From: Actinomycetota bacterium
GTDB lineage: Bacteria > Actinomycetota > CADDZG01 > JAHWKV01
Length of the DNA stretch: 64,000 nucleotides
Direction: 5' to 3'
Assembly: GCA_036258795.1 (NCBI GenBank)
Contig: DATACZ010000026.1
Span: forward strand, 12,552-76,551
In this document: positions 6,109 to 56,590 of the stretch, piece after piece
How positions within the stretch are numbered: the first letter of the stretch is position 1
Layout of the letters: each line of letters begins with the position of its first letter
Translations under genes and position numbers: made by a program
Notes under the pieces: model-generated
The model's input: only the letters and a program-made list of their open reading frames with translations
What the model was told of the DNA's origin: nothing
Databases searched by the model: none

Positions 6109-6146
6109 CAGGCAGTCATTCCCGGGCGAGGAGGGCGGTCATCAGA

Positions 6147-13400: not shown

Positions 13401-13567
13401 GGGCCAATCGGTTCGAGCTTCATCCGGAGGCCCAAGGCGAGGTGACTGTGGCCTTTGGGAGGCGTTGGCTGCGCTTTTTCTGGCTGGCCGTTCAAGCACT
13501 GATCGTTTTTGGACTGGTGGCAGTGGCCCGTTCGCCTGAGCCCGGATCAGCCCCCGGCCGGCAATGA
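10403..13567 (+). CDS. Family 2 glycosyltransferase fused to a large polytopic membrane domain
   Basis: The N-terminal GT-A fold carries 'VVLVTHNG', 'DVIVVDSGS' and the DxD-like 'FLHDD'. About 15 predicted TM helices follow from ~aa 370. 1054 aa. Confidence 0.8.
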   Translation: MDELSFHVQPRLVVVLVTHNGGPWLRRCLASIARQTYSNFDVIVVDSGSETPAAAVVGRILPDAEFIWVERNLGFGTACNYALGSSTKTPSAEYFLFLHDDTQLDPEAISALVSAAVKTGSGIVGGKGLDWDYPEVLVEVGMSANQFCFPYSPLEEGEIDQGQHEGLRETLFVSNSCMLVSRGMAMRCGLWDGAYFAFGEDLDLCIRCRVVGFKVMVEPAARFLHARALTNGARRAAGVGPATVLKRRNQLRTIAKNFHLYRTLPLLVAFFMAGTLRTLLVAASRRFDEVSVYPRAFGAFLGSLPDVVRRRRAVQKRRTVPDRRIRRLMVRETHLGRLQLERLIGGLERGTLAFGAKTLSQLSFSSMRMALSGWVRKPASLSLLLIIVLLIVALRNVLFGPAIASGSLWPFPASGNRLLGDYLSQWRDVRLGTESAAPVALPILWAVNVISLGKAVLAQKLLVVLAIAMGLWGMSRLVKHTTPSVPARVLAVGVYALGPVVHSMVSNGDMAALGLYAGLPFILDLALRTLGSEESPRPGTPFNPDLLARDSARLSLICLPVVALGPSNLVALFVLFSLIGLYALVVGRWTDQVIVRFAYLMLSLGLVVLALLPWSLEGLRSSGPILSPLFSGRGGTLQALWAGRGFEQMLLVNLDGRLGALVALGVAFGALALAGPRRRLESRMLATAWIGFALIGGLAGKGLISPPVFSSTAWLVVPFVIVAALSGHVVAGAEEELPKHSFGWRHNVAIPVVGLLIAGGVLLGWAPSILSWDRPKSTFAASTDEFSGSISSFLTTTAEEVGDFRVLWLGKRWVEPVRSGLRPMGDIDYFLTGPQGLNHLYAHEPPPAEGERRLEVALDALIDRKLHLAGHLLAPANIRFIIVDPQDLPAISALRRQRDIVLEQQLSGVAVFRNLRWLPRAVLAPVSLASQLTEGTPNERALMLVEWSGGWRIPRRSTSSFSGELPRTRHSQILVGENFNASWRAWVGDRRLSHTQAFGWANRFELHPEAQGEVTVAFGRRWLRFFWLAVQALIVFGLVAVARSPEPGSAPGRQ

Positions 13568-14970
13568 GACCCCAGGAGGTGGCCTTCGTAGGCCTGTTCG
13601 TTGTTTTGCTCGGAGCGGTCCTGTTTCTCGACCGCGTCGTTCCGGACCACCGCAGCTCAACCAAGACTGATGAGGCAGGAGCCTTCGTATCGACCGGGTG
13701 GTACTGCCCGGCGCCGAATGGCGAGGACCTGGAGGCGCTGATGTCTACGGCCAATCTGGGGCGCTCCCCGCTGGCGGTCCGGCAATTGTCCGTGGGGGAA
13801 AAGAAAGAGTCCGACTTTGCGCAGGCACGGGTGGAAGCGCTTCACCGACGCTCCATTCCGCTAAGGCAGTTCAACATACCGAATGCGGTTGGGGTGACCG
13901 ACGCCTTTGGTGAGAACAGTACAGCTGCTCTCACCGTTCGCGGCCGAGGTAAGGGATTTGCATCTTCCGAATGCTCGCCGCAGCCGTGGGACAGGTGGTA
14001 CTTCGCCTCGGCTTCCACAGTTCGGGGTGAGGACCACTATCTCCTGGTTGCCAACCCTTTCCGAGAGGAGGCGGTGGTGAAGGTTCGGCTACTGATGCCG
14101 GATAAAGATGTCGTCCCGGCTCGTCTCAAGGATCTGGTCATCCCTACGCTCTCCCAAACCGCGGTTTATCTTCCCGACTACTACGTGGAGAACCCGAGCT
14201 TCGGGGTGGAGCTAACCGCCACCACCGGAAGGGTCATCGTCTCCCGATATTCAGCGGTCAACAGGGGAGGGGTCAGGGGCCTCTCCTTGGATCTGGGGGT
14301 TCGCGAACCCGCCGCCAACTGGCACTTCGCCGGTGGTGAGGTTCCCCAAAACGGGGAGGAAGAGTTAATTCTGGTTAACCCGGGCGACCGTGAAGCCCTT
14401 GTAGAGATCACTTTTCCCACCGACTCGGATCAGGTTGCTCCGCAAGACCTGAGCGAACTGCCGGTGGAAGGAGGAAGGCAGGTAACGGTGGACGTGTCGG
14501 ACCACCTTCCGAGGGGGACCAAACACGGGGTGGTGGTCACCTCGAGCAACTCCGTCCCGCTGGTGGTGGAGAGACGAATCACCGCGCCGGTTGAAGGTGG
14601 GCGAGGCATAGACATGGTGTTCGGAGTCCCTCGTGCATCTCAGCGCTGGGTGGTGCCGGTAGGTTCGGATGTGGGTGGCTTCTCCTCCTTGGCGATTACC
14701 AATCCGGGAGGAGGCGAGGCCACGGTGCGGGTTAGTCTCATCAGCGATGATGGCCCGGCTCGACCACCTGAGCTGGCCGCGTTGACCGTTGAGGCCGGGC
14801 GTCGAGAGACTGTAGACCTGACCAATCTCCTGAGACGAGAGATGGCGACTGCAGTAGTCGAGGCTACCAACGGCGCCATTGCAGTCGAGAGTCAGGCGGT
14901 GTTAGGAGACCCCTACTCGGACTTCGCCTTCACCGCCGGAGAGCCGGTTGCTGTTGGTGGACGGCCATAG
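13564..14970 (+). CDS. Membrane-anchored extracytoplasmic protein, possibly the DUF5719 family (recalled from memory, not verified)
   Basis: N-terminal TM 'VAFVGLFVVLLGAVLFL' followed by a ~440-aa soluble domain. Start overlaps the stop of the GT2 gene. Confidence 0.55.
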   Translation: MRPQEVAFVGLFVVLLGAVLFLDRVVPDHRSSTKTDEAGAFVSTGWYCPAPNGEDLEALMSTANLGRSPLAVRQLSVGEKKESDFAQARVEALHRRSIPLRQFNIPNAVGVTDAFGENSTAALTVRGRGKGFASSECSPQPWDRWYFASASTVRGEDHYLLVANPFREEAVVKVRLLMPDKDVVPARLKDLVIPTLSQTAVYLPDYYVENPSFGVELTATTGRVIVSRYSAVNRGGVRGLSLDLGVREPAANWHFAGGEVPQNGEEELILVNPGDREALVEITFPTDSDQVAPQDLSELPVEGGRQVTVDVSDHLPRGTKHGVVVTSSNSVPLVVERRITAPVEGGRGIDMVFGVPRASQRWVVPVGSDVGGFSSLAITNPGGGEATVRVSLISDDGPARPPELAALTVEAGRRETVDLTNLLRREMATAVVEATNGAIAVESQAVLGDPYSDFAFTAGEPVAVGGRP

Positions 14971-24458: not shown

Positions 24459-24788
24459 GGTGCTGCGCGGGATCTATACTCTAAGGGGCGCTCCGTCTGG
24501 GTCTGTGGTTGCGGGGTTCACACCCCAAGTCCAGGCTAGTCGCAGGCAAAAGGATCCACGTAAGGCAACCATTGGTTGTTGAGCATGGTGCGGTTTAGAG
24601 GTCAGTCCTGCCTCGGGTGACGGGAAGCTCCCGGCACTTGGGAGAAGGTTCGAAGCACGGAATTTTGGTTATTCTTCCAGCAATGGGTCCCACTGGGGTT
24701 CGGGCTGGGTAACTCAAACCGTGCGAGGCTTCAGCAGGCGGATGTGGGGCCAAAGACCAGGTCAGCCGGACGGGAGGGCCCACAAGGG

Positions 24789-25187
24789 ATGCAGATAAGG
24801 GTCCATAGCAGGGATGGCCGGGTGCCCAGCACCCTGGAGAGCTTTGCCGCCGAGAAACTTGGGCACCTTGGAAAGTTCCTTCCGACGATCGAGACGATCG
24901 AGATTGAGCTCTACGAGGAGGGCAGGCCAAAGCGCCCCAACGGGCACGTAGCTCACGTTACCGTCGCAACGACAGGCCCCGCTTTCAGATCCAAGGTCAC
25001 GTCGGGTGACTTCAGGACCTGCATCGACATCGCCGCGGACCGGCTGTACCGGCGGATCACCAAGTTCAAGGGCAAGAGGTCGAGTAAGCCTGCCCACGCC
25101 AGGAGCAGCCGCAAGCCTCCCATGGAGCTCATCCCGGAGGATCAGACGCTGCTCGGCCTGGGGGAGGAGGACACCACCACACCCTGA
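24789..25187 (+). CDS. hpf: Ribosome hibernation promoting factor (short HPF/RaiA)
   Basis: 'MQIRVHSRDGRVPSTLESFAAEKLGHLGKF...' matches HPF. The internal ATG at 24789 was chosen as start. Confidence 0.8.
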   Translation: MQIRVHSRDGRVPSTLESFAAEKLGHLGKFLPTIETIEIELYEEGRPKRPNGHVAHVTVATTGPAFRSKVTSGDFRTCIDIAADRLYRRITKFKGKRSSKPAHARSSRKPPMELIPEDQTLLGLGEEDTTTP

Positions 25188-25250
25188 GAGTGGAGCACCG
25201 GCGGCAGCAGTTGATGTAGGGATCCCGGGGCCTCTCGTCATAATGGAAGC

Positions 25251-32155: not shown

Positions 32156-32635
32156 GTGACGAAGAAGTCCAAGAAGTCAAAATCGTCGGGTGTCTCGGCG
32201 GTAAACAACCCCAAGGCCCGTCACGACTACACGATCCTCGACTCGTTTGAGGCGGGCATGGTCCTGACCGGTAGCGAGGTGAAGTCTCTGCGCCAAGGTC
32301 AGGCCTCGCTTCGAGAGGCGTTCGCGGTAATAAGGGACGGCGAGGTCTTCCTCATTGGAATGAATATTGCCCCCTATGCGCAGGCAGGCTATGCACAGCA
32401 CGAGCCGACCCGCAAGCGCAAGCTCTTGCTACACAAGGATCAGATCGAGCGTCTAATTGGAAAGACGGCCGAGAAGGGCCTCACTCTGGTGCCGCTTCGC
32501 TGTTACTTCAGCCACGGACTGGCCAAGCTCGAGCTTGGTCTGGCAAGAGGCAAGAAGCAATACGACCGCCGGGAGGACCTCAAAGCAAAGGACGCCAAGA
32601 TGCAGATCGACCGAGCGCTCGGTCGCCGGCGCTGA
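32156..32635 (+). CDS. smpB: SsrA-binding protein
   Basis: 'NPKARHDYTILDSFEAGMVLTGSEVKSLRQG' is the canonical SmpB sequence. Confidence 0.95.
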   Translation: MTKKSKKSKSSGVSAVNNPKARHDYTILDSFEAGMVLTGSEVKSLRQGQASLREAFAVIRDGEVFLIGMNIAPYAQAGYAQHEPTRKRKLLLHKDQIERLIGKTAEKGLTLVPLRCYFSHGLAKLELGLARGKKQYDRREDLKAKDAKMQIDRALGRRR

Positions 32636-32701: not shown

Positions 32702-33060
32702 GGGGGCGAAACTGGTTTCGAGGCCGGTCGTTTCGTCTGGAGGAAGCGGGTCGAGGTCAGGGATCCTCGTTAAACCTGCCTGAACAATTAACTGAAACGT
32801 CGCTGCATAAGCGAGTTCCCATCTAGATAGAGATGGGCGTTCCACCCGGAAGGGCCTGCGGTCCGGGATGGGGCGTCATGCAGCAGGCTGGCTCTTGTCA
32901 CCCCCCGCCGGGCGGGGTGCAGAGTGAGACCAAAGTCCGGCTGGGCTCCGGCGAGCCTGCCTGCGGCAGTCGCCGGGTCGAGAGGTAAAAGCAGGCTATG
33001 CCCGTAGAAGCCCCAGAGGAGAGCTGTGTCGACGGGGGTTCGAATCCCCCCGCCTCCACA
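32702..33060 (+). ncRNA. ssrA: Transfer-messenger RNA (tmRNA)
   Basis: 5' GGGGGCGAAACUGGUUUCGA pairs with 3' ...GGGGGUUCGAAUCCCCCCGCCUCCA (T-arm and acceptor). Lies immediately downstream of smpB. The internal '...GUCGCUGCAUAAGCGAG' resembles the actinobacterial '...GCUGCCUAAGCGACG' tag end. Confidence 0.85.
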
Positions 33061-33373
33061 ATTACATAGATGTATTTGCGTGAGAGCTTTATGTCTTACT
33101 AGCTCCTGCTCCAATGTCTCTAACACTTGACCGGCTTGGGCTCGTCGGTGACAGGGCCATCAGGCCGTGGCTTCCGCATTCCGGCACTGCGTCCAGGTCC
33201 AACGGGCCAATATTTCAGGCGGCACCTGGGTAACTAAGTAATACAGCGGCCTTTCGGTCGATCAGGAAAGCGCACTCCGATCGGCCACCTTCTTCAAATA
33301 CGCACAGAGCAAACAACTCGAAGCCGAAGCGCTGGTTCTCATATCGGGGAAAGAGCGGAGGTGTCTGTAGGCC

Positions 33374-34534
33374 TTGCGAATTGCCCTGTTGTCGTGGGAG
33401 TCACTCCATTCGATATCAATCGGGGGCGTAGGCGTCCACGTCACTGAGCTAGCGGCAGCCCTGGATCGGAAGGGCCATGAGGTGCATGTCTTCACGCGCA
33501 TGGGTAATGGCCAGACCCAGCTGGATCAGATTCACGGAGTCTGGTACCACCGCTGCCCCTTCGATCTCAACGCGGACTTCGTTGAGGAAATCGTCAACAT
33601 GTGCCGGTCGATCGTCCATCACGTGCACTCCACAGAGGCTTATATGGGTGCAACTTTCGACGTCATCCACGCCCACGACTGGCTGGCGGCGCTGGCCATG
33701 GCATGGATCCGACAGAGCGGCAGGAAGGCCATCCTCACCATGCACTCCACCGAGTACGGCCGCTGTGGGAATCACTTCAGCGGGGGAGACTCTGACCGTA
33801 TCCGGGAGATCGAGAGATATGGGACCTTTTGCGCAGACCGGGTGATTGCCGTGTCCCATGCCCTGAAGGATGAGCTTCAGTGGATGTACAACCTACCGGA
33901 CTGGAAGGTGGAGACCATCTACAACGGCGTCTCGATCGATGCATACAACGGGTGGATCCCAGATGCCGGTGAGATCCGGCAGAGCTACGGGATTGGGCCC
34001 ACCGACCCCACGGTTCTTTTCGCCGGAAGGATGGCCTACCAGAAAGGGCCGGACCTCCTGGTGGAGGCGATTCCGATGGTCCTTCACCATCATCCCCAAA
34101 CCAAATTCGTCTTCGCCGGTGACGGTCACATGAAAGGGCATTGTGAAGCCAGGGCCTACCAATTGGGAGCGGCCCACGCATGCACCTTTCTTGGTCAGCG
34201 GGGAGGAATAGAGCTCACGAACCTTTTCAAGATCAGTGATGCGGTGTGCGTGCCCAGCCGCAACGAGCCGTTTGGCATCACAGTGCTCGAGGCGTGGAGC
34301 GCGGGAAAGCCCGTGGTGGCGTCGAGCAGTGGGGGGCCCGGCGAGTTTGTCTGGCATGAAGTGACCGGCCTCCAGGTTTACCCGGATCCCAGCTCCATCG
34401 CTTGGGGCATAGGGACTCTCTTCACAAACTTCGAATGGGCCCGCTGGATGGGAGGAAACGGCCGGGAAAGCGTCGAGTCGGTGTTCAACTGGGATCAGGT
34501 TGCCGAGCAGGTGGAAGCTCTCTACAGCCAGTAG
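33374..34534 (+). CDS. GT4 glycosyltransferase (glycogen-synthase-like alpha-glucosyltransferase), TTG start
   Basis: 'MRIALLSWESLHSISIGGVGVHVTELAAALDRKGHEVHVFT' and a C-terminal GT-B fold with E-x7-E. Confidence 0.8.
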   Translation: MRIALLSWESLHSISIGGVGVHVTELAAALDRKGHEVHVFTRMGNGQTQLDQIHGVWYHRCPFDLNADFVEEIVNMCRSIVHHVHSTEAYMGATFDVIHAHDWLAALAMAWIRQSGRKAILTMHSTEYGRCGNHFSGGDSDRIREIERYGTFCADRVIAVSHALKDELQWMYNLPDWKVETIYNGVSIDAYNGWIPDAGEIRQSYGIGPTDPTVLFAGRMAYQKGPDLLVEAIPMVLHHHPQTKFVFAGDGHMKGHCEARAYQLGAAHACTFLGQRGGIELTNLFKISDAVCVPSRNEPFGITVLEAWSAGKPVVASSSGGPGEFVWHEVTGLQVYPDPSSIAWGIGTLFTNFEWARWMGGNGRESVESVFNWDQVAEQVEALYSQ

Positions 34535-34551
34535 TGGATGAGGTGAACAAG

Positions 34552-35175
34552 ATGAGCAAGAAGAACGCTGAGGCCGGATATCCAGAGGACGCCGGGGCGT
34601 TGCCCTCCACATATGGCGAGACCATGGTGCTGGTGGTTCCGGTCGACCCCACCGTTGCCCATGTGTACTGGGATGTTTCGCTCGCCGACTTGGAAAGGTC
34701 CGGCTCGGCCCAGGCCGTCCTGAGGTTTTATGACATTGACGGTGAAGACTTTGATGGGACTAACGCCCGAGGATTTTTTGATTTGGCTGTCGATCTCGAG
34801 GCCAGAAGCTCTTATGCGTCGCTGGGAGGCACCGCAAGGTCTTGCCAGGTCGACCTGGGCTTCGTAGCAAAGGATGGGCGTTTCGTCACGCTGGCCCGAT
34901 CAAATACCGTCCAGTTGCCCCGCTCCGGGCCGTCCCCTAGGAAAGAAGACCGCTACATAGTGGTGAGAGGCGACGAGGAGGAGGAGGCGGCACAGGGGGA
35001 ACGAGCCTCCACCGACAAAGCGGAGCAGACTGTCCGTCGGGAACCGGAGGTCGGCGTTCCCGTCTCAGTCGACCGGCCGACGATTGCGGCCAGAGCTGAG
35101 TCTCAAGAAGAAACGAACGAAGATCTCACTGAGTTGAGTGAACGGTCATTCGAGTCGGGCCTCTCGTCGGCCTGA
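34552..35175 (+). CDS. DUF4912-like protein (accompanies GH57 genes)
   Basis: An ATG at 34552 lies 15 nt after the GT4 stop. 'MVLVVPVDPTVAHVYWDV' matches the DUF4912 pattern (from memory). Acidic C-terminus. Confidence 0.45.
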   Translation: MSKKNAEAGYPEDAGALPSTYGETMVLVVPVDPTVAHVYWDVSLADLERSGSAQAVLRFYDIDGEDFDGTNARGFFDLAVDLEARSSYASLGGTARSCQVDLGFVAKDGRFVTLARSNTVQLPRSGPSPRKEDRYIVVRGDEEEEAAQGERASTDKAEQTVRREPEVGVPVSVDRPTIAARAESQEETNEDLTELSERSFESGLSSA

Positions 35176-35253
35176 TCGGATGGGGAAGCGCCGCACCTTC
35201 GTAGAGGCCGGTCCGCTCCGGGCTCGACTGGCACAATCCGGAGACCTCCTCTA

Positions 35254-38200
35254 ATGGAAAAGGGCTCTCTGGCGATGGTGCTTCATGCCCATCTTCCATA
35301 TGTCGGGCACTCTGCCGCCGAGGATTCCGTCGAACGGCATTGGCTCTATGAGGCGATGACCGAGAGCTACATCCCGCTCCTGCTTGCCTTGGAGCGCCTC
35401 GCCGACGGCGGCATCGACTACCGGATTACCTTCTCCGTGACTCCCAGCCTGGTCTCGATGCTAAGCGACCCACTCCTGCAATCCGGATACGAAAAGCGGT
35501 TGGAGCTATTGATCGAGCTGGCCGACAAGGAGATGGCGCGAACAAGGCGACAGCCGAAGCTCCATGCTTTGGCGTCGATGTACCGGCGGTTGCTGGCTCA
35601 AACGCATGACGTGTTCGTCAATCGCTACGGCAGGAATCTGGTCCAGGCATGGAAAGCGCTTCAGGAAAGTGGCCATGTCGAGATCCTCGCCAGCGCAGCC
35701 ACCCATGGCTATCTTCCGCTTCTTGCGGCCGTTCCCTCGGCGGTCGAAATGCAGATCCGAGTGGGTGTCCAGGAGTATCGGCGGGCATTCGGCCGAAAAC
35801 CGAAGGGGTTCTGGCTGCCGGAGTGCGGCTATTACTCGGGAGTGGACGAATTTCTTCGGGAGCAAAGAATCCGCTATACCGTTCTCGAAACTCACGGGAT
35901 CACCCGTGCCGACCCAAGGCCTCGCCATGGGGTATACGCACCCATCTATGCCTCAACCGGAGTGGCCATGTTTGGGCGCGATCCGGTGTCCACCAACCAA
36001 GTCTGGAGTCCAACGGATGGGTATCCTGGCGACCCGGCCTACCGCGAGTTCTACCGGGATGTCGGCTATGACCTCGATCTGGAATACGTCAGGCCATACG
36101 TGCACCGAGACGGCATCCGGCAGGACACGGGCCTCAAGTACTACAGCGTCACGGGGAAGACCAGACGAAAAAAGCTCTACGTGCCCGAGGAGGCTGAGCG
36201 GAAAGCCGAGCTACACGCCCGAGAATTTGCGGCGGGCAAGGAGAAGCAGGTCCAGCTTCTGGCCGCGAGCATGGACCGGAAGCCGCTCATATTGGCAGCG
36301 TACGACGCCGAGCTGTTCGGTCACTGGTGGTTCGAGGGGCCCAAGTGGCTTGAACAGCTGATTTGTAACCTTGCCACAGATAACAAGGGCGTCCGAATGA
36401 CCACACTGTCCGAGTATCTGGACGCGTACCCGGAGAACCCGTTGGCTTCCCCCGCCGTGTCCAGCTGGGGGAACGACGGGTTTCACGAGTCGTGGCTCAA
36501 CGAAAGCAATGATTGGATTTACCCGCATCTCCATAGAGCAGCCCGAGCCATGGAAGATCTAGCAAACGGTGATGCCCGGGCCGGGAGCTTGAGCGAAAGA
36601 GCTCAAGCGCAAGCTCTCAGGGAGCTGCTTCTTGCTCAGTCGAGTGACTGGGCCTTCATGATCAACGCCGGAAAGATGGCTGAGTATGGGGCTGATAGGA
36701 CCAAGACTCACTTGCTTCGTTTCCAAAGTCTTCACAACCAGATCAAGCGGGCGACTATAGACGAGACCTGGCTTGCAAAGGTCGAAGACGAAGACCGACT
36801 CTTTCCAGACCTAGAGGTCCCCCTGGCACTATCCCACTCCAACCACCGGGCCACATTCGGATCAGCAGCGGACCGAGAGCCCGCTGCATTGCAGACCGGT
36901 GTGACGGCAACGGCCGCAGGAGCGGCAAAAAGCAAGGCGCATTCTCGGAGTGAGGTCACCCGTCTTTCGACTGCGGACGTCCAGCTGTTCCTGGCCGGAT
37001 CTCATCCCCACATCCAAGAAAAGTTGGGGGCACACCGGATGACGGTGGAGGGAGTCCAGGGAACGTACTTTGCCGTGTGGGCACCCGGTGCCGAAACGGT
37101 GTCGGTGATAGGAGACTTCAACCGCTGGGAACCCGCCGCCAACGTACTGGCGCCACACGACAGGTCGGGAATTTGGGAAGGCTTTATCCCGGATGTCGGC
37201 AAGGGCAGTCGCTACAAGTTCCACGTCACCTCACCCCATCACGGCTATCGGGCCGACAAGGCCGATCCATTCGCATTCTTCAGTGAGGTCTCTCCAGGCA
37301 CGGCCTCAGTGGTGTGGGACCTTGCCTACCGATGGGGGGACCAGGAGTGGATGGAAACTCGCGGTCGCCACAACGCCCTGAACGCTCCCATATCCATCTA
37401 CGAGCTTCACCTGGGCTCCTGGAAGCGCAGGCCCGCCGATAACGCCAGCCGCCCGCTCACGTACCGTGAGCTCGCACCCAGGCTGACGGAGTACGTCAAT
37501 TCCATGGGCTTCACCCACGTGGAGTTCATGCCCGTCATGGAGCACCCCTTCTACGGCTCCTGGGGCTATCACGTGACCGGCTACTTTGCTCCCACAAGCC
37601 GCTACGGCACGCCGCAGGACCTCATGTACTTGATAGACCACCTCCACCAGGCCGGAATCGGGGTGATACTGGATTGGGTCCCCTCGCACTTCCCCAGAGA
37701 CGAGCATGGGTTGGGCTACTTCGACGGCACCCACCTATACGAGCACCAGGATCCACGGCAGGCCATACACCCCGAGTGGAACAGCTTCATCTTCAACTAT
37801 GGGCGTCCGGAGGTCTGCAGCTTCTTGATATCCAATGCCGAACATTGGCTTTCCGCCTACCACGCCGACGGCATCAGAGTGGATGCGGTCGCTTCGATGC
37901 TCTATCTGGATTATGCGCGCCAGCCGGGAGAATGGATTCCCAATCGCATGGGAGGAAGGGAAAACCTCGAGGCGATCGACTTCTTGAAGCGCCTAAACGA
38001 GCAGGTACGTTTCAACCATCCCGAAGTGCAGATGATCGCCGAGGAGTCCACTGCCTGGCCGATGGTTTCCAGGCCTGTTCATGTAGGAGGACTCGGCTTC
38101 GGTCTCAAGTGGGACATGGGTTGGATGCACGACACGCTTCATTACATGAGCAAAGACCCCATTCATCGAAGCCACCACCACAACGAGCTGACCTTTCGCA

Positions 38201-38856
38201 TGCTCTATGCGTTCAACGAGAACTTCATCCTGCCCTTGTCCCACGACGAGGTGGTGCACGGAAAGAGCTCCCTGGTGGGGCGCATGCCAGGAGATGAGTG
38301 GCAGCGCTACGCGAACCTGCGCCTGCTATTCGGATACATGTACGCGCAGGCCGGTAAGAAGATGCTGTTCATGGGGGGAGAGTTTGGCCAAGTGTCCGAG
38401 TGGAAGCACGATGGGGAGCTCGAGTGGGATGCCCTCGCCTATCCAACACATGCGGGGACGCAGCTCTGGGTGATGGGTCTCAACCGTCTCTACAGGGAGG
38501 AAGCCGCTCTGCACCAGCTCGACTGCGACCCTGAGGGCTTCGAGTGGGTGGACGCGGACGACAGCGAAAGGAGCATCATCAGCTTTATTCGCAGAGGGTC
38601 TTCCTTCGGCGACCTGTTCCTGTTCGTAGGCAACTTCACTCCGGTGCCGCGATTTGAGCACTTGATAGGCGTTCCCAGGGGTGGGCCATGGCGGGTGGTC
38701 CTGAACAGTGACGGCAGGCAGTACGGTGGCACGGGGTTCGGTGCCGTTGGCGACATCCAAGCGATGCCGGATACCGCGAACGGCCGGGTTCACTCCATCA
38801 AGCTGACCCTTCCGCCTCTTGCTTGCCTGTTTTTGAAGAGTTCGGCCGCCTCATGA
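35254..38856 (+). CDS. glgB: Fusion protein: N-terminal GH57 domain (~540 aa) + C-terminal GH13 1,4-alpha-glucan branching enzyme GlgB (CBM48 + catalytic + C-domain)
   Basis: The N-terminus 'MVLHAHLPYVGHS' is the GH57 signature. From ~aa 560, 'VQGTYFAVWAPGAETVSVIGDFNRWE' (CBM48) and 'GVILDWVPSHFPRDEHGLGYFDGTHLYEH' (GH13 GlgB) follow. A single uninterrupted 1200-aa ORF. Confidence 0.85.
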   Translation: MEKGSLAMVLHAHLPYVGHSAAEDSVERHWLYEAMTESYIPLLLALERLADGGIDYRITFSVTPSLVSMLSDPLLQSGYEKRLELLIELADKEMARTRRQPKLHALASMYRRLLAQTHDVFVNRYGRNLVQAWKALQESGHVEILASAATHGYLPLLAAVPSAVEMQIRVGVQEYRRAFGRKPKGFWLPECGYYSGVDEFLREQRIRYTVLETHGITRADPRPRHGVYAPIYASTGVAMFGRDPVSTNQVWSPTDGYPGDPAYREFYRDVGYDLDLEYVRPYVHRDGIRQDTGLKYYSVTGKTRRKKLYVPEEAERKAELHAREFAAGKEKQVQLLAASMDRKPLILAAYDAELFGHWWFEGPKWLEQLICNLATDNKGVRMTTLSEYLDAYPENPLASPAVSSWGNDGFHESWLNESNDWIYPHLHRAARAMEDLANGDARAGSLSERAQAQALRELLLAQSSDWAFMINAGKMAEYGADRTKTHLLRFQSLHNQIKRATIDETWLAKVEDEDRLFPDLEVPLALSHSNHRATFGSAADREPAALQTGVTATAAGAAKSKAHSRSEVTRLSTADVQLFLAGSHPHIQEKLGAHRMTVEGVQGTYFAVWAPGAETVSVIGDFNRWEPAANVLAPHDRSGIWEGFIPDVGKGSRYKFHVTSPHHGYRADKADPFAFFSEVSPGTASVVWDLAYRWGDQEWMETRGRHNALNAPISIYELHLGSWKRRPADNASRPLTYRELAPRLTEYVNSMGFTHVEFMPVMEHPFYGSWGYHVTGYFAPTSRYGTPQDLMYLIDHLHQAGIGVILDWVPSHFPRDEHGLGYFDGTHLYEHQDPRQAIHPEWNSFIFNYGRPEVCSFLISNAEHWLSAYHADGIRVDAVASMLYLDYARQPGEWIPNRMGGRENLEAIDFLKRLNEQVRFNHPEVQMIAEESTAWPMVSRPVHVGGLGFGLKWDMGWMHDTLHYMSKDPIHRSHHHNELTFRMLYAFNENFILPLSHDEVVHGKSSLVGRMPGDEWQRYANLRLLFGYMYAQAGKKMLFMGGEFGQVSEWKHDGELEWDALAYPTHAGTQLWVMGLNRLYREEAALHQLDCDPEGFEWVDADDSERSIISFIRRGSSFGDLFLFVGNFTPVPRFEHLIGVPRGGPWRVVLNSDGRQYGGTGFGAVGDIQAMPDTANGRVHSIKLTLPPLACLFLKSSAAS

Positions 38857-38878
38857 TGAGCGGCCTCGGGAGGAGAAG

Positions 38879-40339
38879 ATGCAAGAGCTGACCGAGTACG
38901 TTGAGGGCCTGCCGAATCTGTCCGGATCTGAGCAGTTGATCCAAGAGGCCATTGCCTCCGGGCGGGAGCGACCGGTGTTCCTGGGCCAGACCCCAGTCAA
39001 CATCGCCGACATCGACAGTGCGTTCGCCGTGGCCCTGCACATGCATCAGCCACTGATTCCTGCCGGCGGGCCGGATGTCAAGACTGCGGCAACCATCAGC
39101 AACCTGCAGTGGATGACCGAGAATCCCAGCCTGGGCGATAACCACAATGCCCCGGTGTTCCACTGGTGCTACAAGCGCATGGGCGAGTTCATCCCGCAGC
39201 TGATCGCTGAAGGCAAGCAGCCGCGGATCATGCTGGAGTACTCGGGGACCCTGCTCCACGGGATGCGGCGCATGGGCCTTAACGACGTGTTCGATGCTCT
39301 GAGGCCGGTCACCTGCGATCCCGATCTCAGATATGCGGTCGAGTGGCTCGGCTGCCCCTGGGGACACGCAGTCGCCCCCTCTACGCCGGTGCAGGACTAC
39401 CGGTTACACGTGCGAGCCTGGCAACATCACTTCGCCGCCATCTTCGGGCTGGATGCGCTCGGCAGGGTGCGTGGTTTCTCTCCCTCTGAGATGGCGCTGC
39501 CCAACCATCCCGATGTGGCTTACGAGTTTGTTAAGACCCTGAACGACTGCGGTTATCAGTGGGTGCTCGTCCAGGAGCACAGCGTCGAGCGTCCTGATGG
39601 AGGTCCGCTGGATGACAAGCACATCCCCCACCGTCTCGTCTGCACAAACTCCGAAGGAGAGACAGCGGAGATCGTGGCGGTCGTAAAGACTCAGGGCAGT
39701 GACACAAAGCTGGTGGCACAGATGCAGCCGTACTACGAGGCCAAGGGCCTGCAACGCTCCGACCTGGCCGGACGGGAGGTGCCGCCGCTCGTCACCCAGA
39801 TTGCGGACGGGGAAAACGGCGGGGTGATGATGAACGAGTTCCCTCCTAAGTACTTCGAGGTGGTCCGGGAGTGCTCCGGCTCACGCACGCCGATAATGAA
39901 TGTGACGGAGTATCTGGAGCAGGTGTTCGCTGCCGGGATCCAGCCTTCGGACCTGCCACCGATTCAGCCCCTCTTCCAGAACCGCATCTGGGACCGGATG
40001 GCGTCCGGCGAAGGCCCCGACCGGCTCTTTGAGGTCATCGAGCAGCTCCGGGCCGAGGATGGGCGTTTCCACATGGATGGTGGTAGCTGGACCAACGACA
40101 TCTCCTGGGTGCGGGGCTACGACCATGTGCTGATCCCGATGGACAAAGCCAGCTCACTCTTCCACGAGCAGGTCCTTACCCACGGCATTAGAACCGACGA
40201 TCCCCGCTACAGGTCTGGCCTGTTCCACCTGCTCACTGCGGAAACCAGCTGCTTTCGCTATTGGGGCGAAGGAGTTTGGACTGACTACGGCACCGAGCTG
40301 TCCCGTAGGGTCAACGACATAATCACCCACGACTTTTAA
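38879..40339 (+). CDS. Glycoside hydrolase family 57 protein
   Basis: 'FAVALHMHQPLIP' GH57 HxHQP motif. 486 aa. Confidence 0.8.
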   Translation: MQELTEYVEGLPNLSGSEQLIQEAIASGRERPVFLGQTPVNIADIDSAFAVALHMHQPLIPAGGPDVKTAATISNLQWMTENPSLGDNHNAPVFHWCYKRMGEFIPQLIAEGKQPRIMLEYSGTLLHGMRRMGLNDVFDALRPVTCDPDLRYAVEWLGCPWGHAVAPSTPVQDYRLHVRAWQHHFAAIFGLDALGRVRGFSPSEMALPNHPDVAYEFVKTLNDCGYQWVLVQEHSVERPDGGPLDDKHIPHRLVCTNSEGETAEIVAVVKTQGSDTKLVAQMQPYYEAKGLQRSDLAGREVPPLVTQIADGENGGVMMNEFPPKYFEVVRECSGSRTPIMNVTEYLEQVFAAGIQPSDLPPIQPLFQNRIWDRMASGEGPDRLFEVIEQLRAEDGRFHMDGGSWTNDISWVRGYDHVLIPMDKASSLFHEQVLTHGIRTDDPRYRSGLFHLLTAETSCFRYWGEGVWTDYGTELSRRVNDIITHDF

Positions 40340-40394: not shown

Positions 40395-41456
40395 ATGGAA
40401 ACGGTCCGGCTCACCCAGTACTCGCACGGCGCCGGCTGAGCTTGCAAGCTCGGCCCCGGGGACCTGGCGCAGGTCGTGCGCCGCTTAGCCAAGAAACAAG
40501 GGAGCCTGGAGCCCAACGTGCTGTTGGGCCTGGACACCCCCGACGACGCTGCCGTGTACCGGATCGACGACCGCACTGCGCTGGTGCAGACGGTCGACTT
40601 CTTCACCCCCATCGTCGACGACGCCTACTCATGGGGAGCCATTGCCGTAGCCAACGCCATGAGTGACATCTACGCCATGGGCGGCAAGCCCCTGCTCGGC
40701 CTCAACCTGGTCGGGTGGCCCAAGGAGCTGGATCTCGATCTCTTGGGCAGCGTTCTGGAAGGCGGGGCCGATAAGGCTGCCGAGGCCGGGGCGGCGGTGA
40801 TTGGAGGGCATACCGTCGACGATCCCGAGCCGAAGTTCGGGATGGCGGTTACGGGGACCGTTGATCCGGACAAGATGACCAGATTGTCCAACGCACGCCC
40901 GGGCATGGGCGTGGTTCTCACCAAGCCCTTGGGAATGGGCATCATCTCCACGGCACTCAAGCGGGGCCAGGCCGACCCGGAGCTGGTGGCGGAGGCCACC
41001 CGCATCATGGCGGAGCTGAATGCGGGGGCAGCCCAAGCAATGCTCGAGGTTGGCGCTACGGCGGCTACCGATGTCACGGGTTTTGGCCTGATAGGCCACC
41101 TGCGTGGCATGGCTGCCGCGAGCGGATGCTCCGTTGAGCTATGGTCCGATGACGTTCCGGTCATTGAAGGGGTTCGAGATCTGGCGGAGCGCCAGCTCGT
41201 TCCCGGTGGAAGCCGTAACAACCAGCGCTACTTTGGCGGCTACGTGGACTTCGATTCCGAGGTGGACGACCTGACCAGGACGGTGCTTTTTGATGCCCAG
41301 ACGTCTGGGGGCTTGCTGATTGCGGTCCCGGACGACCGACTGCAGGACTTGCTGGAGGCGCTAGGAGCCAAGGGGACGTCTGTGCAGAAAGTGATAGGCC
41401 GCTTCTTGGAGGGGGAGGCCGGGCGGATGAGGGTGACATTGCGTGAACTCCGTTGA
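40395..41456 (+). CDS. selD: Selenide, water dikinase (selenophosphate synthetase), selenocysteine-containing form
   Basis: The table ORF (GTG 40476) is preceded in frame by 'M E T V R L T Q Y S H G A G U A C K L G P G D L A Q V V R R', with TGA ~40437-40439. 'GAG-U-ACK' is the conserved SelD active-site loop where Sec or Cys occurs. Downstream is the AIRS-like body. Confidence 0.85.
40440..40500 (+). promoter_or_regulatory. Putative bacterial SECIS hairpins downstream of the selD UGA
   Basis: GC-rich hairpins, e.g. GGCGCA-GGUCG-UGCGCC, lie 25-45 nt 3' of the UGA. Confidence 0.4.
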
Positions 41457-52579: not shown

Positions 52580-54010
52580 TCAGGATTCGGTCGGATTCCT
52601 CTCCAGGAGCACGCTCATGCCGTCGGAAAGCTGAGACATCCGGCCCAGAAATAGGCTTCCCTTGGCGAGCATATGCACTCTTTGGGCGTCTCCGGTGGTG
52701 AGACGGCGCAGAGCGTGCGGAAGATAACAGATCGCCGAGGCGAGGTGACCCTGCGTGGGGGCGAAGCCAGGCATTCCTCTCTCGGCCACAAACTCGTCGA
52801 TCTGGTCCTTTGACATCTCGCCCTTGCGGGCCGCCAGGCTTGCAATCATCCGGTAGTTGCGTTCGGGAACGTTGCCCGAGCCCTGTGGCTCGGTAACCTC
52901 GGGATCGTGCAGCTCGGTGGCGTAGTCGTCCACTTCCAGCATTGAAATGCCGGTGCGCTCCAAGGGCTCGACGGCCAGCGCCTGCATGATCTGGGGGTTG
53001 GAGCCTCCCATCGCAACCCGGTGCCGGCCAACGGTATCCAGCCGAAGGAGCGGTGAGGCCCCGTCGTCGGCCTCGATGAGAAGAGCGACCCCGCCCATTA
53101 CGTCCTCTAAAACCGGAAGGTCGTTGCGAAGATGCCCCTGGAACTTCATTCCCAGCTTTGGAAGGGAGCCGCCGGCAGCGACGGCCACCCTCTTGAAGAC
53201 TCCCGAGTTGACCAACGCACCGGCGAACACCATGGCCGGTAGGGGAGCCGCGCAGAAGTTCTTGATGTCGGCCCCAGAGGACTGTGTCAGGCCGGCTAGG
53301 GATGCCATAGCCTTGGCCATGTTCCCCCCGCCCCGTTGATAACGGTCGCCCACTGCTTCTTCCCCGCAGGTAAGTACGAAGTCGATCGACTCCGGATCGA
53401 TGTCGTGATCTTCGATCAGGTGCAGCAGGGCGAGTACTCCGGTTGCCTTGCAGGCAAGGTTCTCGAGCAGGATGTTTGCGGTAAGTGACTCGTCTTCGGA
53501 GTGAGCGGTCTTGACGGCGCCGGCAACCTCCTCGCCCAGGTACAGGGGCAAGCCCCCGGTCTCGGCTCCCGCGGCCTCGGCATCCTCTGCAACGTTTTCC
53601 AGGCGCTCTAGGTTGAACTTCTTGGATAGAGGGTGCTTCGCCAGCGCCTCTGCCGCCCGTTCGGCTACCGGCCCGTCCAGGACGATCAAGCTGAACTCGT
53701 CGACTGCGGCCATCAGCCCTAGAAACTCCTCCTCCGGCATCGCCTCGCCATCCGGCGTGAAGCGTGAGCTGCCTGGGACGGTCTTGCCGACCCTGGGACG
53801 CTCGGGCATCTCGCGGGGATGGATAGCACCCAGATATGCCTGATTGGGGGGATAACCCATGGCTTCATCGAAGCTCCGAAGGCTCGAGAGGAACTTGGAC
53901 TTCTGATCCGGGTTTTTGGGCAGCTCCCGCGACGGCTTGGACCCGTACCGGGCCAGGTTCGGCGTGTGGGCAAGGATATGGCTTGCTGCAGATACGACGG
54001 GTTTGGTCAC
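52580..54010 (-). CDS. Glycine/sarcosine/betaine reductase complex protein C-like (GrdC-like, thiolase-fold with 'NFCAA' Cys)
   Basis: N-terminus 'MTKPVVSAASHILAHTPNLARYGS' resembles GrdC (from memory). Starts 11 nt downstream of grdB. Confidence 0.6.
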   Translation of the reverse strand: MTKPVVSAASHILAHTPNLARYGSKPSRELPKNPDQKSKFLSSLRSFDEAMGYPPNQAYLGAIHPREMPERPRVGKTVPGSSRFTPDGEAMPEEEFLGLMAAVDEFSLIVLDGPVAERAAEALAKHPLSKKFNLERLENVAEDAEAAGAETGGLPLYLGEEVAGAVKTAHSEDESLTANILLENLACKATGVLALLHLIEDHDIDPESIDFVLTCGEEAVGDRYQRGGGNMAKAMASLAGLTQSSGADIKNFCAAPLPAMVFAGALVNSGVFKRVAVAAGGSLPKLGMKFQGHLRNDLPVLEDVMGGVALLIEADDGASPLLRLDTVGRHRVAMGGSNPQIMQALAVEPLERTGISMLEVDDYATELHDPEVTEPQGSGNVPERNYRMIASLAARKGEMSKDQIDEFVAERGMPGFAPTQGHLASAICYLPHALRRLTTGDAQRVHMLAKGSLFLGRMSQLSDGMSVLLERNPTES

Positions 54011-54023
54011 ACCAATTCCTTTC

Positions 54024-55316
54024 CTATTCGGTCGATGCCGGTTCGAACACCGTGGGCTTTTCGACTTCGGTGGAGATGGCCGTTAGTGCGGTCTCCAGCA
54101 ATTGCCGGCGCCACTCCTTTTCCTGATCCGGAGCGAGGCTGGGATCCCCTGCAGGGTATGGGATGCCCCTCGTCGGAACGATGCGGGGCGCGCCGACCCT
54201 GCTTGCGATCGGCACGAGGTTGCACAGGAGGGCGGTCGGAATGCCGGCCCTCTCCAGCTCTTTGGCAAGCGTTGACCCGCAACGCGTACCCGTCCCTCAG
54301 GTCGAGGTGAGGATGGCGGCCTGAACGCCGGCCTTGCGAAGCTCCTCGGCCCACTCGACCCCGTAGCCGGAGGCTGAGTCGATGGGCATGCCGTTTCCGA
54401 CCGTGACCAGATACTCGGAGTGCAACTGACCAATACGGCCCTCTTTCTCCATCTCCCGGGCCACGTCCAGGGGAAGAATCCGGTTCGGGTCCTCGTTGGC
54501 TTTTACGGTCGAGAACCCGCCGTGAATCGATTGAAATTCGCCCGCCGGCATGCTTTCCCTTTCCTCTAACGGGTACCGCAGCCACCGGGTGGCCCGGGAG
54601 GACTCCAGCCGGCCTGGATTTCCGTTGGGAACAAGCCCTCCTTCAGTTAGGAGGGCGATCAGGGCGTCCGCGGGATCGGACACCGGCGGAGCCGGCTCTA
54701 CGGTGCCGAAGTCGGGAAGTGGGATCTCGGTTGCGCTGCTGTCGCCGCCAAGGCGCTTCAGCGCCAGTGCAACCGCCCTCGTGGCGGCGTTGTCCTCAGC
54801 CATGCGATTTCGACGTGGACCCTTTCCCTTGATGGCATTGGGAATCTCTTCTCCGGCGGCTAGCTTGGCGACCGCGTCGGCGATTGCCTCCAGGGCGTCG
54901 CCCATCTCCCTGGCGGTCTCGCCGGTTGGAACGACCGGTGCTGAGCCTGCCTCCGCTACCCCAGGGTTGTCTGGGTGCATGGCCGCGAGGGTCTTGAGCC
55001 CTGCCTCGAAGGCGGCCGCGGCCACTCGCCCGCAAGCAATGCCGTTGCGCCCGCTGGTGAAGGCCGGACCGGCAATCAGAATCTCGGCATCCGTTCCCTT
55101 TACCAGCTCCAAGATCTCCTCAGCGGCGCCGTCCTTTGACGCTGCGTAGTCGTCGCCGCAGGACACCGTGGCTATGATCTGGTGCTGGTCCCCGAGAAGC
55201 GAAGCAAGCTTGCGGCCGGGGCCCAGCGGCTCTTCCTTGAGCTCGGGACCCGCGTTCGCGGAGTCCTCTCCGCCTATGCCGGCGAAGAACTGGTTGATGT
55301 AGTGGACGATCTTCAA
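54024..55316 (-). CDS. grdB: Glycine-reductase-family selenoprotein B (GrdB), with selenocysteine encoded by in-frame TGA at 54297..54299
   Basis: The table ORF 54297..55316 ('MKIVHYINQFFAGIGGED...AAILTST*') stops at TGA. The same frame continues 'U-GTGTRCGSTLAKELERAGIP...IPYPAGDP...TEVEKPTVFE*' (table ORF 54024..54215). This matches the GrdB 'VILTSTUGTCTRCGATMVKEIERVGIP...TVFE' architecture. Confidence 0.85.
54260..54296 (-). promoter_or_regulatory. Putative SECIS hairpin 3' of the grdB UGA (GCGUUG-CGGGU-CAACGC)
   Basis: A 6-bp stem with a G-rich 5-nt loop begins ~13 nt downstream of the UGA on the mRNA. Confidence 0.45.
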
Positions 55317-56590
55317 CTCGCGGCTTCCTCCCAGCAGGTCAAGCGCCCCCAGCCCAGTGGGTTGAGTGATCCGTATACCGCTGCCGTCTGGAGGCTCAGC
55401 TCAGCAGTCGAGGGGTCATCGGTAAGGTCAAGGATCTCACCTCCGAGCGCGCGCTCTACGGCATCGAGCTTGATGATCTCATCGTAATTCCCGGCGCTAA
55501 CCAAAGCAGAGCCCTTAGTTGGTGGAGATACGAGGGGGGGACCGGATCCGTCCGGACCTGCCATCTCACCGTGGATTGAAACAGCCTTGATGCCCATGGC
55601 CTCGCAGGCGTCGGCCTTTAAAGAATTGTCGGAGTCGGCGTTGCCGCCCCCCTCCTTGGTCAGGATGACCGCATCCAGACCGAGGCTGGCGCACAGGCGG
55701 GCGGCATGCTCGGATATCAGCTCCTTGTGAGCCTGTTCCACGGGCTCGGGGGAGAGGATCAGGCCGGCAAAGTCCAGGTCTTGCCCATCCCGTGCTCGAA
55801 GAGCGGCCACCACAGGGTGGTTCTGGTAAAGGTAAGTGTTGTTCTTGAGCCCCGGGTGTCCGTACTGACCGCTCACCACCGCCCCATCTTCCAGCTCACT
55901 TGGATCCATGAGGGTGGGCAGAGAATCCGACATGGAACGGCCGTATACAAAGACGTCCTTGAATGTTCCCTGAGTCTGAAGGTTCGTGATGGTTCCGATC
56001 CGGGGACGGTCGCCGGGAGCAGGGGTAGTAGTGGGCGCGACTTCTCGCTCTTCATCGGGTTCAGACTCGAGGGCAGCCTCGGCCAGGCGGGCGGCGAGCT
56101 TGAGGATTCCGCGGCGAAGGGCCAGGTCGACGTCCTCCCAGGCGGCTCCCTCTGCGGGCTCGAACTCGACCACCAGATTATGGGTGCTGCCAAAGGGTGA
56201 CAGCTCCGCGGCCGGGCCCGACATTTGAATCAACCCTTCCTGGAGCCTGGGCAGGTATCCGGCAGAGATCACCGCGGCTCCCCTTAAGACGTGGGTCTCT
56301 CCCCGTCCCTGCGGCATGGCCTTGCCGAGGAAGCCGGGGAAGATTCCAGCACCTTCAGGGCCCTTGGTACGCGGCTGTACCGCGTCGAGAACCTTGATCA
56401 CTCGGGCACTCTCCCCGGGTGAGATCCAGGACACGTTGGTCGACGCCAGCGCGCGGCTGGAAAGGCATGCCTTCGCCTCATCGGCAGAGACCGTGAGCCT
56501 TCCGCCCTCAAAGGTCGTGGAATCGCCAAAGCCCACCGACTCGACGTCGTGGCAAAGCAGTTTGAGAGGGCCTACTTCCTTATCTGTCAT
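55313..56590 (-). CDS. grdE: Glycine-reductase-family proprotein GrdE-like (protein B alpha/beta precursor)
   Basis: 'RVIKVLDAVQPRTKGPEGAGIFPGFLG...THVLRGAAVISAGYLPRLQEGLIQMSGPAAELSPF' parallels GrdE 'RIAPVKDVIEPRVKVEGSGAMFPGM...THALVGSTVL...GFQEGVIDMSGPIAKY'. The stop overlaps the grdB start. Confidence 0.75.
   Translation of the reverse strand: MTDKEVGPLKLLCHDVESVGFGDSTTFEGGRLTVSADEAKACLSSRALASTNVSWISPGESARVIKVLDAVQPRTKGPEGAGIFPGFLGKAMPQGRGETHVLRGAAVISAGYLPRLQEGLIQMSGPAAELSPFGSTHNLVVEFEPAEGAAWEDVDLALRRGILKLAARLAEAALESEPDEEREVAPTTTPAPGDRPRIGTITNLQTQGTFKDVFVYGRSMSDSLPTLMDPSELEDGAVVSGQYGHPGLKNNTYLYQNHPVVAALRARDGQDLDFAGLILSPEPVEQAHKELISEHAARLCASLGLDAVILTKEGGGNADSDNSLKADACEAMGIKAVSIHGEMAGPDGSGPPLVSPPTKGSALVSAGNYDEIIKLDAVERALGGEILDLTDDPSTAELSLQTAAVYGSLNPLGWGRLTCWEEAAS

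Follow-up and report, generated by a model that had tools for sequence, protein, structure and literature searches.

The role of GH57 proteins that resemble glucan branching enzymes (GBEs) but lack the flexible loop is seen in two ways in the literature: one published view places these loop-less "branching enzymes" outside glycogen synthesis (PMC9291813), and the other holds that they cooperate with the GH13 branching enzyme GlgB (PMC10708623). The loop-less class makes up 92% of GH57 "GBE" sequences and has low or no branching activity on amylose, and its role has been called puzzling (PMC9291813). Its members are weak at branching and hydrolytic (PMC9291813, PMC6616209), with high hydrolytic activity in the AmyC-type enzymes (PMC6616209), and they also carry out alpha-1,4-transglycosylation (PMC10346327). 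In vitro, the GH13 and GH57 enzymes of Petrotoga mobilis, which are separate proteins, jointly raise branch density, and the GH57 enzyme trims the branches made by the GH13 enzyme, which become shorter (PMC10708623). Here, we describe a gene cluster in a 64,000-nucleotide stretch of the genome of an uncultured Actinomycetota bacterium (assembly GCA_036258795.1, contig DATACZ010000026.1, positions 12,552 to 76,551; hereafter the window) in which these two enzyme families meet in one reading frame. The cluster consists of four + strand open reading frames (ORFs) at 33374-40339, encoding a GT4 glycosyltransferase, a DUF4912 protein, a 1200-aa protein, and a 486-aa GH57-family protein (GH57b), and its genes, coordinates, and neighbors agree with those given in a preliminary description of this DNA. 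As read from its sequence, the third gene is an in-frame translational fusion joining two unrelated glucan-branching-enzyme families. While P. mobilis has the same two families in one organism as two proteins (PMC6629080, PMC10708623), they form a single polypeptide here, so that their stoichiometry and proximity are fixed.

The Pfam profile of the 1200-aa protein places GH57 at residues 7-389 (115 bits), BE_C at 425-521 (106 bits), and CBM48 at 590-674 (76 bits), followed by Alpha-amylase and then Alpha-amylase_C at residues 1098-1195. In the Pfam and NCBIfam searches, all domains of a complete GH57 enzyme and of a complete GlgB (CBM48, GH13 catalytic domain, and C-domain) were present, which bears out the preliminary description of one continuous ORF holding both, and the "HAHLPY" signature that it had noticed in the GH57 half is located at residues 11-16. 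The N-terminal half scores above the cut-offs of both the GH57 (PF03065, 114.7 bits against 21.2) and the BE_C (DUF1957; PF09210, 106.3 bits against 25) hidden Markov models. The earlier assignment to GH57 therefore stands and can be refined: the domain is not a generic GH57 but a branching-enzyme-like GH57 + BE_C module of the loop-less AmyC class. Since the GH57 half belongs to the branching-enzyme-like subfamily, the protein joins both branching-enzyme families.

The placement in the AmyC class comes from comparison with solved structures. The nucleophile E190 (WLPECGY, conserved sequence region (CSR) III) and the acid/base D351 (YDAELFGHWW, CSR-IV) align with those of PDB entries 2B5D and 5WU7 and are invariant in 13 homologues. 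The match to 2B5D, Thermotoga maritima AmyC, runs end to end (E = 7.6e-145) with no gaps at the loop or at beta5-beta6, whereas, compared with the Pyrococcus horikoshii GBE 5WU7, ~14 residues are missing after CSR-III and 10 are missing at the flexible loop. Gaps against 5WU7 but not against AmyC identify the module as a member of the loop-less, beta5-beta6-less AmyC-type class. In addition, it scores 315 and 294 bits against the NCBIfam equivalogs for Thermococcales and Thermus GBEs, whose cut-offs are 1000 and 920, and it has neither the flexible loop nor the beta5-beta6 element that distinguish a "true" GH57 GBE (PMC9291813). The module thus shares with AmyC the GH57 + BE_C architecture, the catalytic Glu and Asp, and the absence of both elements. 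However, AmyC is a stand-alone protein of 528 aa, whereas the module in the window is extended at its C terminus by a linker and an entire GlgB.

The C-terminal half matches NCBIfam PRK05402 (NF003811) at residues 575-1195 with 943 bits against a cut-off of 741, and it also exceeds the cut-offs of the GlgB equivalogs NF008967 (933 bits against 577) and TIGR01515 (866 bits against 464), the matches spanning residues 570-1197. PDB entry 6JOY, a GlgB, is matched over its full length (770 bits), and the catalytic barrel residues D877 (GIRVDAV), E931 (IAEEST), and D998 (LSHDEV) align to it. The equivalog match, the CBM48, the Asp/Glu/Asp of CSR-II, CSR-III, and CSR-IV, and the C-terminal beta-domain are those of a GH13_9 GlgB (EC 2.4.1.18), and by these matches the C-terminal module is an ordinary short-type GlgB. 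It has the CBM48, the catalytic triad, and the C-domain of short-type enzymes such as 6JOY and the members of PRK05402. Unlike them, it has no free N terminus, and a ~575-residue GH57 enzyme with its linker takes the place of the N1 domain.

The GH57::GlgB fusion is genuine, rare, and under selection, and the public annotation missed it. The same in-frame junction is present in at least two further Actinomycetota assemblies, GCA_050693115.1 (locus L081) and GCA_050693695.1 (locus L168), whose fusion proteins are 65% identical to that of the window and are immediately preceded by GT4 and DUF4912 genes; the gene order in L081 differs in that GH57b lies upstream of GT4. A third protein fragment, P0518, likewise spans the GH57/GlgB junction. 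A stop codon or frameshift at the junction, which the preliminary description had considered as a possible sequencing error, was sought and not found, and the junction is reproduced in L081 and L168. Comparison of the window with L168 shows both halves to be under purifying selection, with dN/dS values of 0.22 in the catalytic part of GH57, 0.11 in BE_C, and 0.14 in GlgB (dS >= 1). The linker has 29% identity to that of L168, with in-frame indels and a dN of 0.95; it is fast-evolving yet open and in frame. Because the GH57 module is selected and has no stop codon of its own, its translation must run into GlgB. The fusion probably arose by an in-frame junction between the 3' end of the GH57 gene and glgB, a frequent neighbor of the cluster.

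In its public record, the source contig has only a 623-aa GlgB (HEX2258455.1) followed by a 486-aa GH57 protein (HEX2258456.1). About 1.7 kb of GH57 coding sequence that is intact and conserved has no protein entry in this annotation, and the protein collection that we searched contained none for the GH57 half. The annotated GlgB (P0391 in that collection) starts with MFLAGSHPH and is 99% identical to the GlgB half of the window. Its CTG start codon cuts into a conserved GlgB N-terminal motif (..TADVQLF..), which begins upstream of the CTG. Since the annotation gives the GlgB half alone, the fused reading needs the independent support described above. The annotation pipeline called just the half that matches a family model and thereby obscured the architecture; start calling guided by such a model seems to be the cause.

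To our reading of the searches, the fusion is rare, a bounded statement because the genome and metagenome scans give the best matches listed. It was absent from the best 150 matches in an exhaustive search of 1.84 billion representative proteins, in which the long matches were, by eye, other GlgB fusions (MalQ::GlgB, Pep2::GlgB, GlgB::TreZ, and tandem GlgB). One candidate, the 1068-aa P0157, also has a GH57-family domain N-terminal to a full GlgB. However, this domain belongs to a different GH57 subfamily, with DUF3536 and no BE_C, and is 24% identical to the GH57 of the window over a partial stretch; P0157 was rejected as a fusion of the window type, and by its domain composition it is an independent fusion event. 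When genome contigs were scanned with the full protein, the best 80 loci were stand-alone glgB genes with 60-67% identity, and no GH57 ORF was found near glgB in any of these 80. Some genome-contig loci that aligned at "residues 139-1196" looked fused, but all proved to lack a GH57 ORF when their ORFs were examined with BLAST. A metagenome scan centered on the junction likewise returned no locus, among the 80 loci listed as matches, that spans the junction or fuses GH57 to GlgB. Moreover, we found no description of a GH57::GH13 fusion in the open-access literature.

While the fusion is rare, the surrounding cluster is common and widespread, and the fusion is a variant of it rather than a new kind of system. 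We compared 79 metagenome loci that carry a related GH57 gene (52-62% identity) among the matches listed. In all 58 loci with enough sequence, DUF4912 immediately precedes the GH57 gene in the same orientation; 15 of the 79 loci contain GT4, 18 contain GH57b, and 5 contain a separate glgB. The 3' end of the GH57 gene is complete in 73 loci: 63 of these genes stand alone, and 10 continue into a GT5 GlgA; 3 more GlgA fusions are cut by the contig end. Whether orthologues are fused or separate, a point raised in the preliminary description, has a divided answer: they are fused to GlgB in L081 and L168 and mostly stand-alone elsewhere. The GH57(BE-like)::GlgA fusions of Acidobacteriota (~1040 aa; P0002-P0120, L156) have an orthologous GH57 module (56-61% identity), a DUF4912 gene upstream, and GT4, GH57b, and glgB nearby. 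They differ in that their C-terminal partner is a synthase, not a branching enzyme, and in being common.

Other relatives show further arrangements of the same parts. P0245, from locus L172, is a GH57-BE::GT4 fusion whose GT4 is 35% identical to that of the window and which has DUF4912 upstream, and in P0225 the GH57 module is fused to a GH57b-like domain; glycogen-enzyme modules have been fused repeatedly and independently. DUF4912 lies directly downstream in locus L171, and one relative, P0242, is without it. In L171 (1099-9030), the GT4, GH57, and DUF4912 genes stand next to a gene for an 810-aa fusion of a sugar-1-phosphate nucleotidyltransferase and a phosphoglucomutase (PGM), and the locus also holds a ROK kinase and a Glucodextran_C protein. 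From its gene content, L171 looks like a self-contained glucose-to-glucan pathway; its nucleotidyltransferase falls below every NCBIfam cut-off. Since each component of the operon is tied to the GH57 module elsewhere by neighborhood or fusion, the components point to one alpha-glucan-building pathway.

The remaining three proteins of the cluster differ in how well they can be placed. The GT4 matches Glycos_transf_1 (125 bits), Glyco_transf_4 (110 bits), and part of Glyco_transf_5 in Pfam, scores 76 bits against TIGR02095 (glgA; cut-off 328), and is 78% identical to its orthologue in L081. We presume it to be an alpha-1,4-glucan-elongating enzyme. The DUF4912 protein matches PF16258 at residues 21-131 (97.4 bits against a cut-off of 29.4). 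An alignment of 36 homologues reveals an N-terminal domain of ~115 aa, a variable acidic linker, and the conserved C-terminal peptide DLTExSExxFxxGxSS, with which full-length members end. A PDB profile search with DUF4912 returned nothing meaningful, a SecA2 match at E = 0.13 being noise, and we found no description of its function in the open-access literature. The AlphaFold confidence (pLDDT) was 42 for DUF4912 predicted from its single sequence and 40 for GH57b predicted by AlphaFold2 with 29 homologues (~80% identity), both too low for a usable model.

GH57b scores 27.7 bits in Pfam GH57, just above the cut-off of 21.2, and only the N-terminal half of the model is covered. It contains HQP (residues 56-58), the candidate nucleophile E204 (SPSEMAL), the candidate acid/base D310 (IADGENGG), and a CSR-V-like ETSCFRYWG; HQP, E204, D310-G-E-N, and ETSCFRYWG are invariant in 29 sequences. 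When it was aligned with the GH57-BE profile by hhalign, CSR-I, CSR-III, and CSR-V lined up and CSR-IV was misaligned, with a probability of 3.8%. Neither PDB, searched by sequence and by profile, nor NCBIfam gave a match. The family is abundant, with at least 8000 candidates at E <= 1e-5, the best 120 of which are 76-100% identical. Elsewhere (L082, L083/L084, and L085-L087), GH57b is paired with a synthase of family GT4 or GT5 and another GH57 protein of ~400 aa, without a GH57-BE gene, and the glycosyltransferase and GH57b may form a separate sub-module.

We consider it probable that the cluster is a chromosomal, vertically inherited four-gene operon that makes and shapes an intracellular glycogen-type alpha-glucan and includes a genuine AmyC-class GH57::GlgB fusion, its two modules tethered by a flexible linker of ~55 residues. 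In this operon, the GT4 would extend alpha-1,4 chains from a nucleotide-sugar, and the GlgB module, judged by its equivalog-level match and intact catalytic triad, would cut these chains and re-attach the segments via alpha-1,6 bonds. The tethered GH57 module would act on the same particle, where its hydrolysis or alpha-1,4-transglycosylation would shorten or redistribute the outer alpha-1,4 chains, as suggested by the published separate GH13 and GH57 enzymes. It would contribute only minor branching of its own, and the outcome would be new acceptors and a denser polymer with short chains. DUF4912 may serve as an accessory partner of the GH57 module, as its invariant adjacency suggests, and GH57b may be a further intracellular alpha-glucan hydrolase or transferase. 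Because an AmyC-type module branches poorly and hydrolyzes or trims, a tethered branch-and-trim enzyme appears to be the best reading of the fusion. As this model mirrors the synergy in P. mobilis, the bifunctional branching/trimming enzyme proposed in the preliminary description seems reasonable.

A natural, selected in-frame fusion of both modules is Rosetta-stone evidence for their cooperation on one substrate, strengthened by the parallel cases in which this GH57 module is fused to GlgA, GT4, or a GH57b-like domain. The main value of the finding lies in this genetic evidence that loop-less GH57 enzymes act jointly with GlgB and GlgA on glycogen-type glucans. As a ready-made single-chain construct, the fusion could also serve for tests of branch-and-trim synergy, which has some value for the design of highly branched, slowly digestible glucans. 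What is new is a rare variant fusion in a widespread but unstudied gene cluster, whereas the component families are known. DUF4912 comes out as the unstudied constant partner of this GH57 enzyme class. A bolder and rather doubtful proposal is that GT4, GH57b, DUF4912, and loop-less GH57 make up a widespread, as yet undescribed alpha-glucan machine of which the fusion is one visible part, with DUF4912 as the obligate partner of loop-less GH57. In such a machine, DUF4912 could be a glucan-binding or primer subunit, or an activator that docks via its C-terminal DLTExSExxFxxGxSS. If true, this partnership would explain why the loop-less class shows little or no activity when assayed alone, a puzzle in the literature (PMC9291813).

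Several observations weigh against a glycogen-type operon with a functional fusion. The fusion is so far found only in metagenome-assembled genomes of two lineages, and neither glgC nor galU is present in the 64-kb window. The best NCBIfam match of the GT4, TIGR02149 (glgA_Coryne), reaches 150 bits against a cut-off of 302, all its NCBIfam matches being below cut-off, and its PDB relatives are distant (the SPS-like 6KIH, MshA, BshA, GlgM 6TVP, and PaGS). DUF4912 and GH57b gained no structural or functional anchor from the PDB profile searches, and the proposed division of labor is extrapolated from unfused enzymes of other phyla. In addition, in-frame TTG and GTG codons lie at about residues 546 and 550 of the fusion, and an internal start could also yield free GlgB. 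These linker codons, together with a public record that gives only the 623-aa GlgB from codon 578 and the lack of a GH57-half protein in the collection, would fit a locus that makes no fusion protein at all, with GlgB produced alone from an internal start and the GH57 stretch being a pseudogene, an untranslated remnant, or an assembly artefact. We regard this as very unlikely: the annotated CTG start intrudes on the N-terminal motif conserved in GlgB, the full-length GH57 half retains all catalytic motifs and has a dN/dS of 0.1-0.2 at dS >= 1, no stop separates the halves in the window, L081, or L168 while P0518 spans the junction, and an additional internal start would not remove the fusion. 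The preliminary description had also suggested a horizontally acquired genomic island integrated at ssrA, as the cluster starts directly downstream of the transfer-messenger RNA (tmRNA) gene, a frequent integration site. The gene order, unlike that of L081, also speaks for an island. However, the 3' end of ssrA, sought downstream, has no second copy in the window with <=3 mismatches allowed, no other direct repeat pair is suited as island ends, no integrase was found, GC content stays at 0.58-0.62 over the region and its flanks with GC and skew flat, and core genes follow downstream. The island idea was dropped as extremely improbable.

The operon could also have a catabolic or recycling role, in which the GH57 enzymes and GlgB would remodel or degrade imported maltodextrin or stored glucan instead of building a polymer. 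The strongly hydrolytic nature of AmyC-type GH57 enzymes (PMC6616209), the amylase/glucanotransferase-type motifs of GH57b, and the location of GH57b near a LacI regulator, an ABC sugar transporter, and GH130 in L085/L086 all speak for such a role. It nevertheless appears unlikely, since a GT4 synthase-like gene stands first in the operon, many organisms have the same GH57 module fused to GT4 or to GlgA, a glycogen synthase, L171 has genes for nucleotide-sugar supply, and the cluster contains no transporter, phosphorylase, or debranching gene. A different product is conceivable as well, namely, a small methylated or acylated glucose lipopolysaccharide (MGLP) instead of glycogen, for which the preliminary description had drawn an analogy with Mycobacterium tuberculosis Rv3031 (GH57) and Rv3032 (GT4). 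The likeness is that of an actinobacterial GT4 paired with a loop-less GH57 BE-like protein, Rv3031 likewise being without the loop and beta5-beta6 (PMC9291813). The analogy ends with this pairing, the only feature common to both loci. In the MGLP locus (Rv3030-Rv3037c), GT4 and GH57 occur along with genes for methyltransferases and acyltransferases. Neither the cluster of the window nor its immediate surroundings contain a methyltransferase, acyltransferase, or glucosylglycerate gene; the cluster adds DUF4912, GH57b, and a fused GlgB and is flanked by ssrA and selD. The GT4 remains far below the TIGR02149 cut-off and is not a member of that family, a full glycogen-type GlgB is covalently attached to the GH57 module, and relatives fuse this module to GlgA. 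An MGLP-like pathway is thus highly unlikely.

Table 1 Features of the cluster and its upstream boundary (positions in the window)
Feature	Position	Strand	Remarks
smpB	32156-32635	+	directly before tmRNA
tmRNA (ssrA)	32702-33061	+	Rfam RF00023, 129.8 bits; upstream boundary, outside the cluster
GT4 retaining glycosyltransferase	33374-34534	+	386 aa; TTG start
DUF4912 protein	34552-35175	+	207 aa; best start ATG 34552; mechanical ORF from 34402
GH57(BE-like)::GlgB fusion ORF	35254-38856	+	1200 aa, uninterrupted
GH57 module	35254-36816	+	aa 1-521; (beta/alpha)7 catalytic domain and BE_C helical domain
Inter-module linker	36817-36978	+	aa 522-575, ~55 aa; Ala/Ser/Thr-rich, not conserved
GH13_9 GlgB module	36979-38856	+	aa 576-1200
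CTG codon, annotated start of the 623-aa GlgB	36985-36987	+	aa 578 of the fusion ORF
CBM48	37021-37275	+	aa 590-674
GH57b, stand-alone GH57-family protein	38879-40339	+	486 aa; Pfam GH57 27.7 bits

The gaps between the four genes of the cluster are 17, 78, and 22 nt, and a purine-rich, Shine-Dalgarno-like stretch precedes each gene. The tight spacing and these ribosome-binding-type stretches fit a single operon. A scan for promoters and terminators gave no signal exceeding shuffle expectation. The cluster starts 312 nt downstream of the tmRNA gene. Upstream lie secA, prfB, ftsE, ftsX, a C-terminal processing protease gene, smpB, and ssrA, and downstream lie selD, a JAB/CysO/CysM-like (mec-cysO-cysM-like) set, murI, rph, and rdgB; by their gene content, both flanks are core actinobacterial housekeeping genes. 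We take the gene order of the flanks to resemble the Rv3100c and Rv1334-1341 regions of M. tuberculosis. As the preliminary description had stated, the window holds no glgC: no glgC-like nucleotidyltransferase (NTP_transferase) was found among the window ORFs scanned, the unscanned ones all being <210 aa. Within the window, the classical GlgC-GlgA-GlgB pathway is thus not represented, the synthase-like gene being a GT4 and GlgC being absent.

Several other features were noted in the window. A raiA RNA motif (24492-24774 (+); Rfam RF03072, 130.5 bits) immediately precedes a small ORF (24790-25188 (+)) that resembles a ribosome-hibernation factor by eye, the two standing just before secA. Further upstream, at 4476-8615 and 10403-14970, are F420 biosynthesis genes, namely, those for a CofE-like ligase, CofD, and an 822-aa radical-SAM CofG/H-type fusion, as well as a gene for a 1054-aa GT2 followed by one for a DUF5719 protein, which fits an Actinomycetota chromosome. 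On the other side, selD (40476-41456) adjoins the glucan cluster, and a GrdB-like glycine/sarcosine/betaine reductase B gene is present at 54011-55316 (-). The latter has an in-frame TGA (54297-54299) in the motif LTST-U-GTGTRCG, and because its frame continues for ~90 codons past the TGA, this is a probable selenocysteine codon, in keeping with the nearby selD. The GrdB-like gene is adjoined by a Gly_reductase component gene (55313-56590) and a DUF5940 gene (52580-54010).

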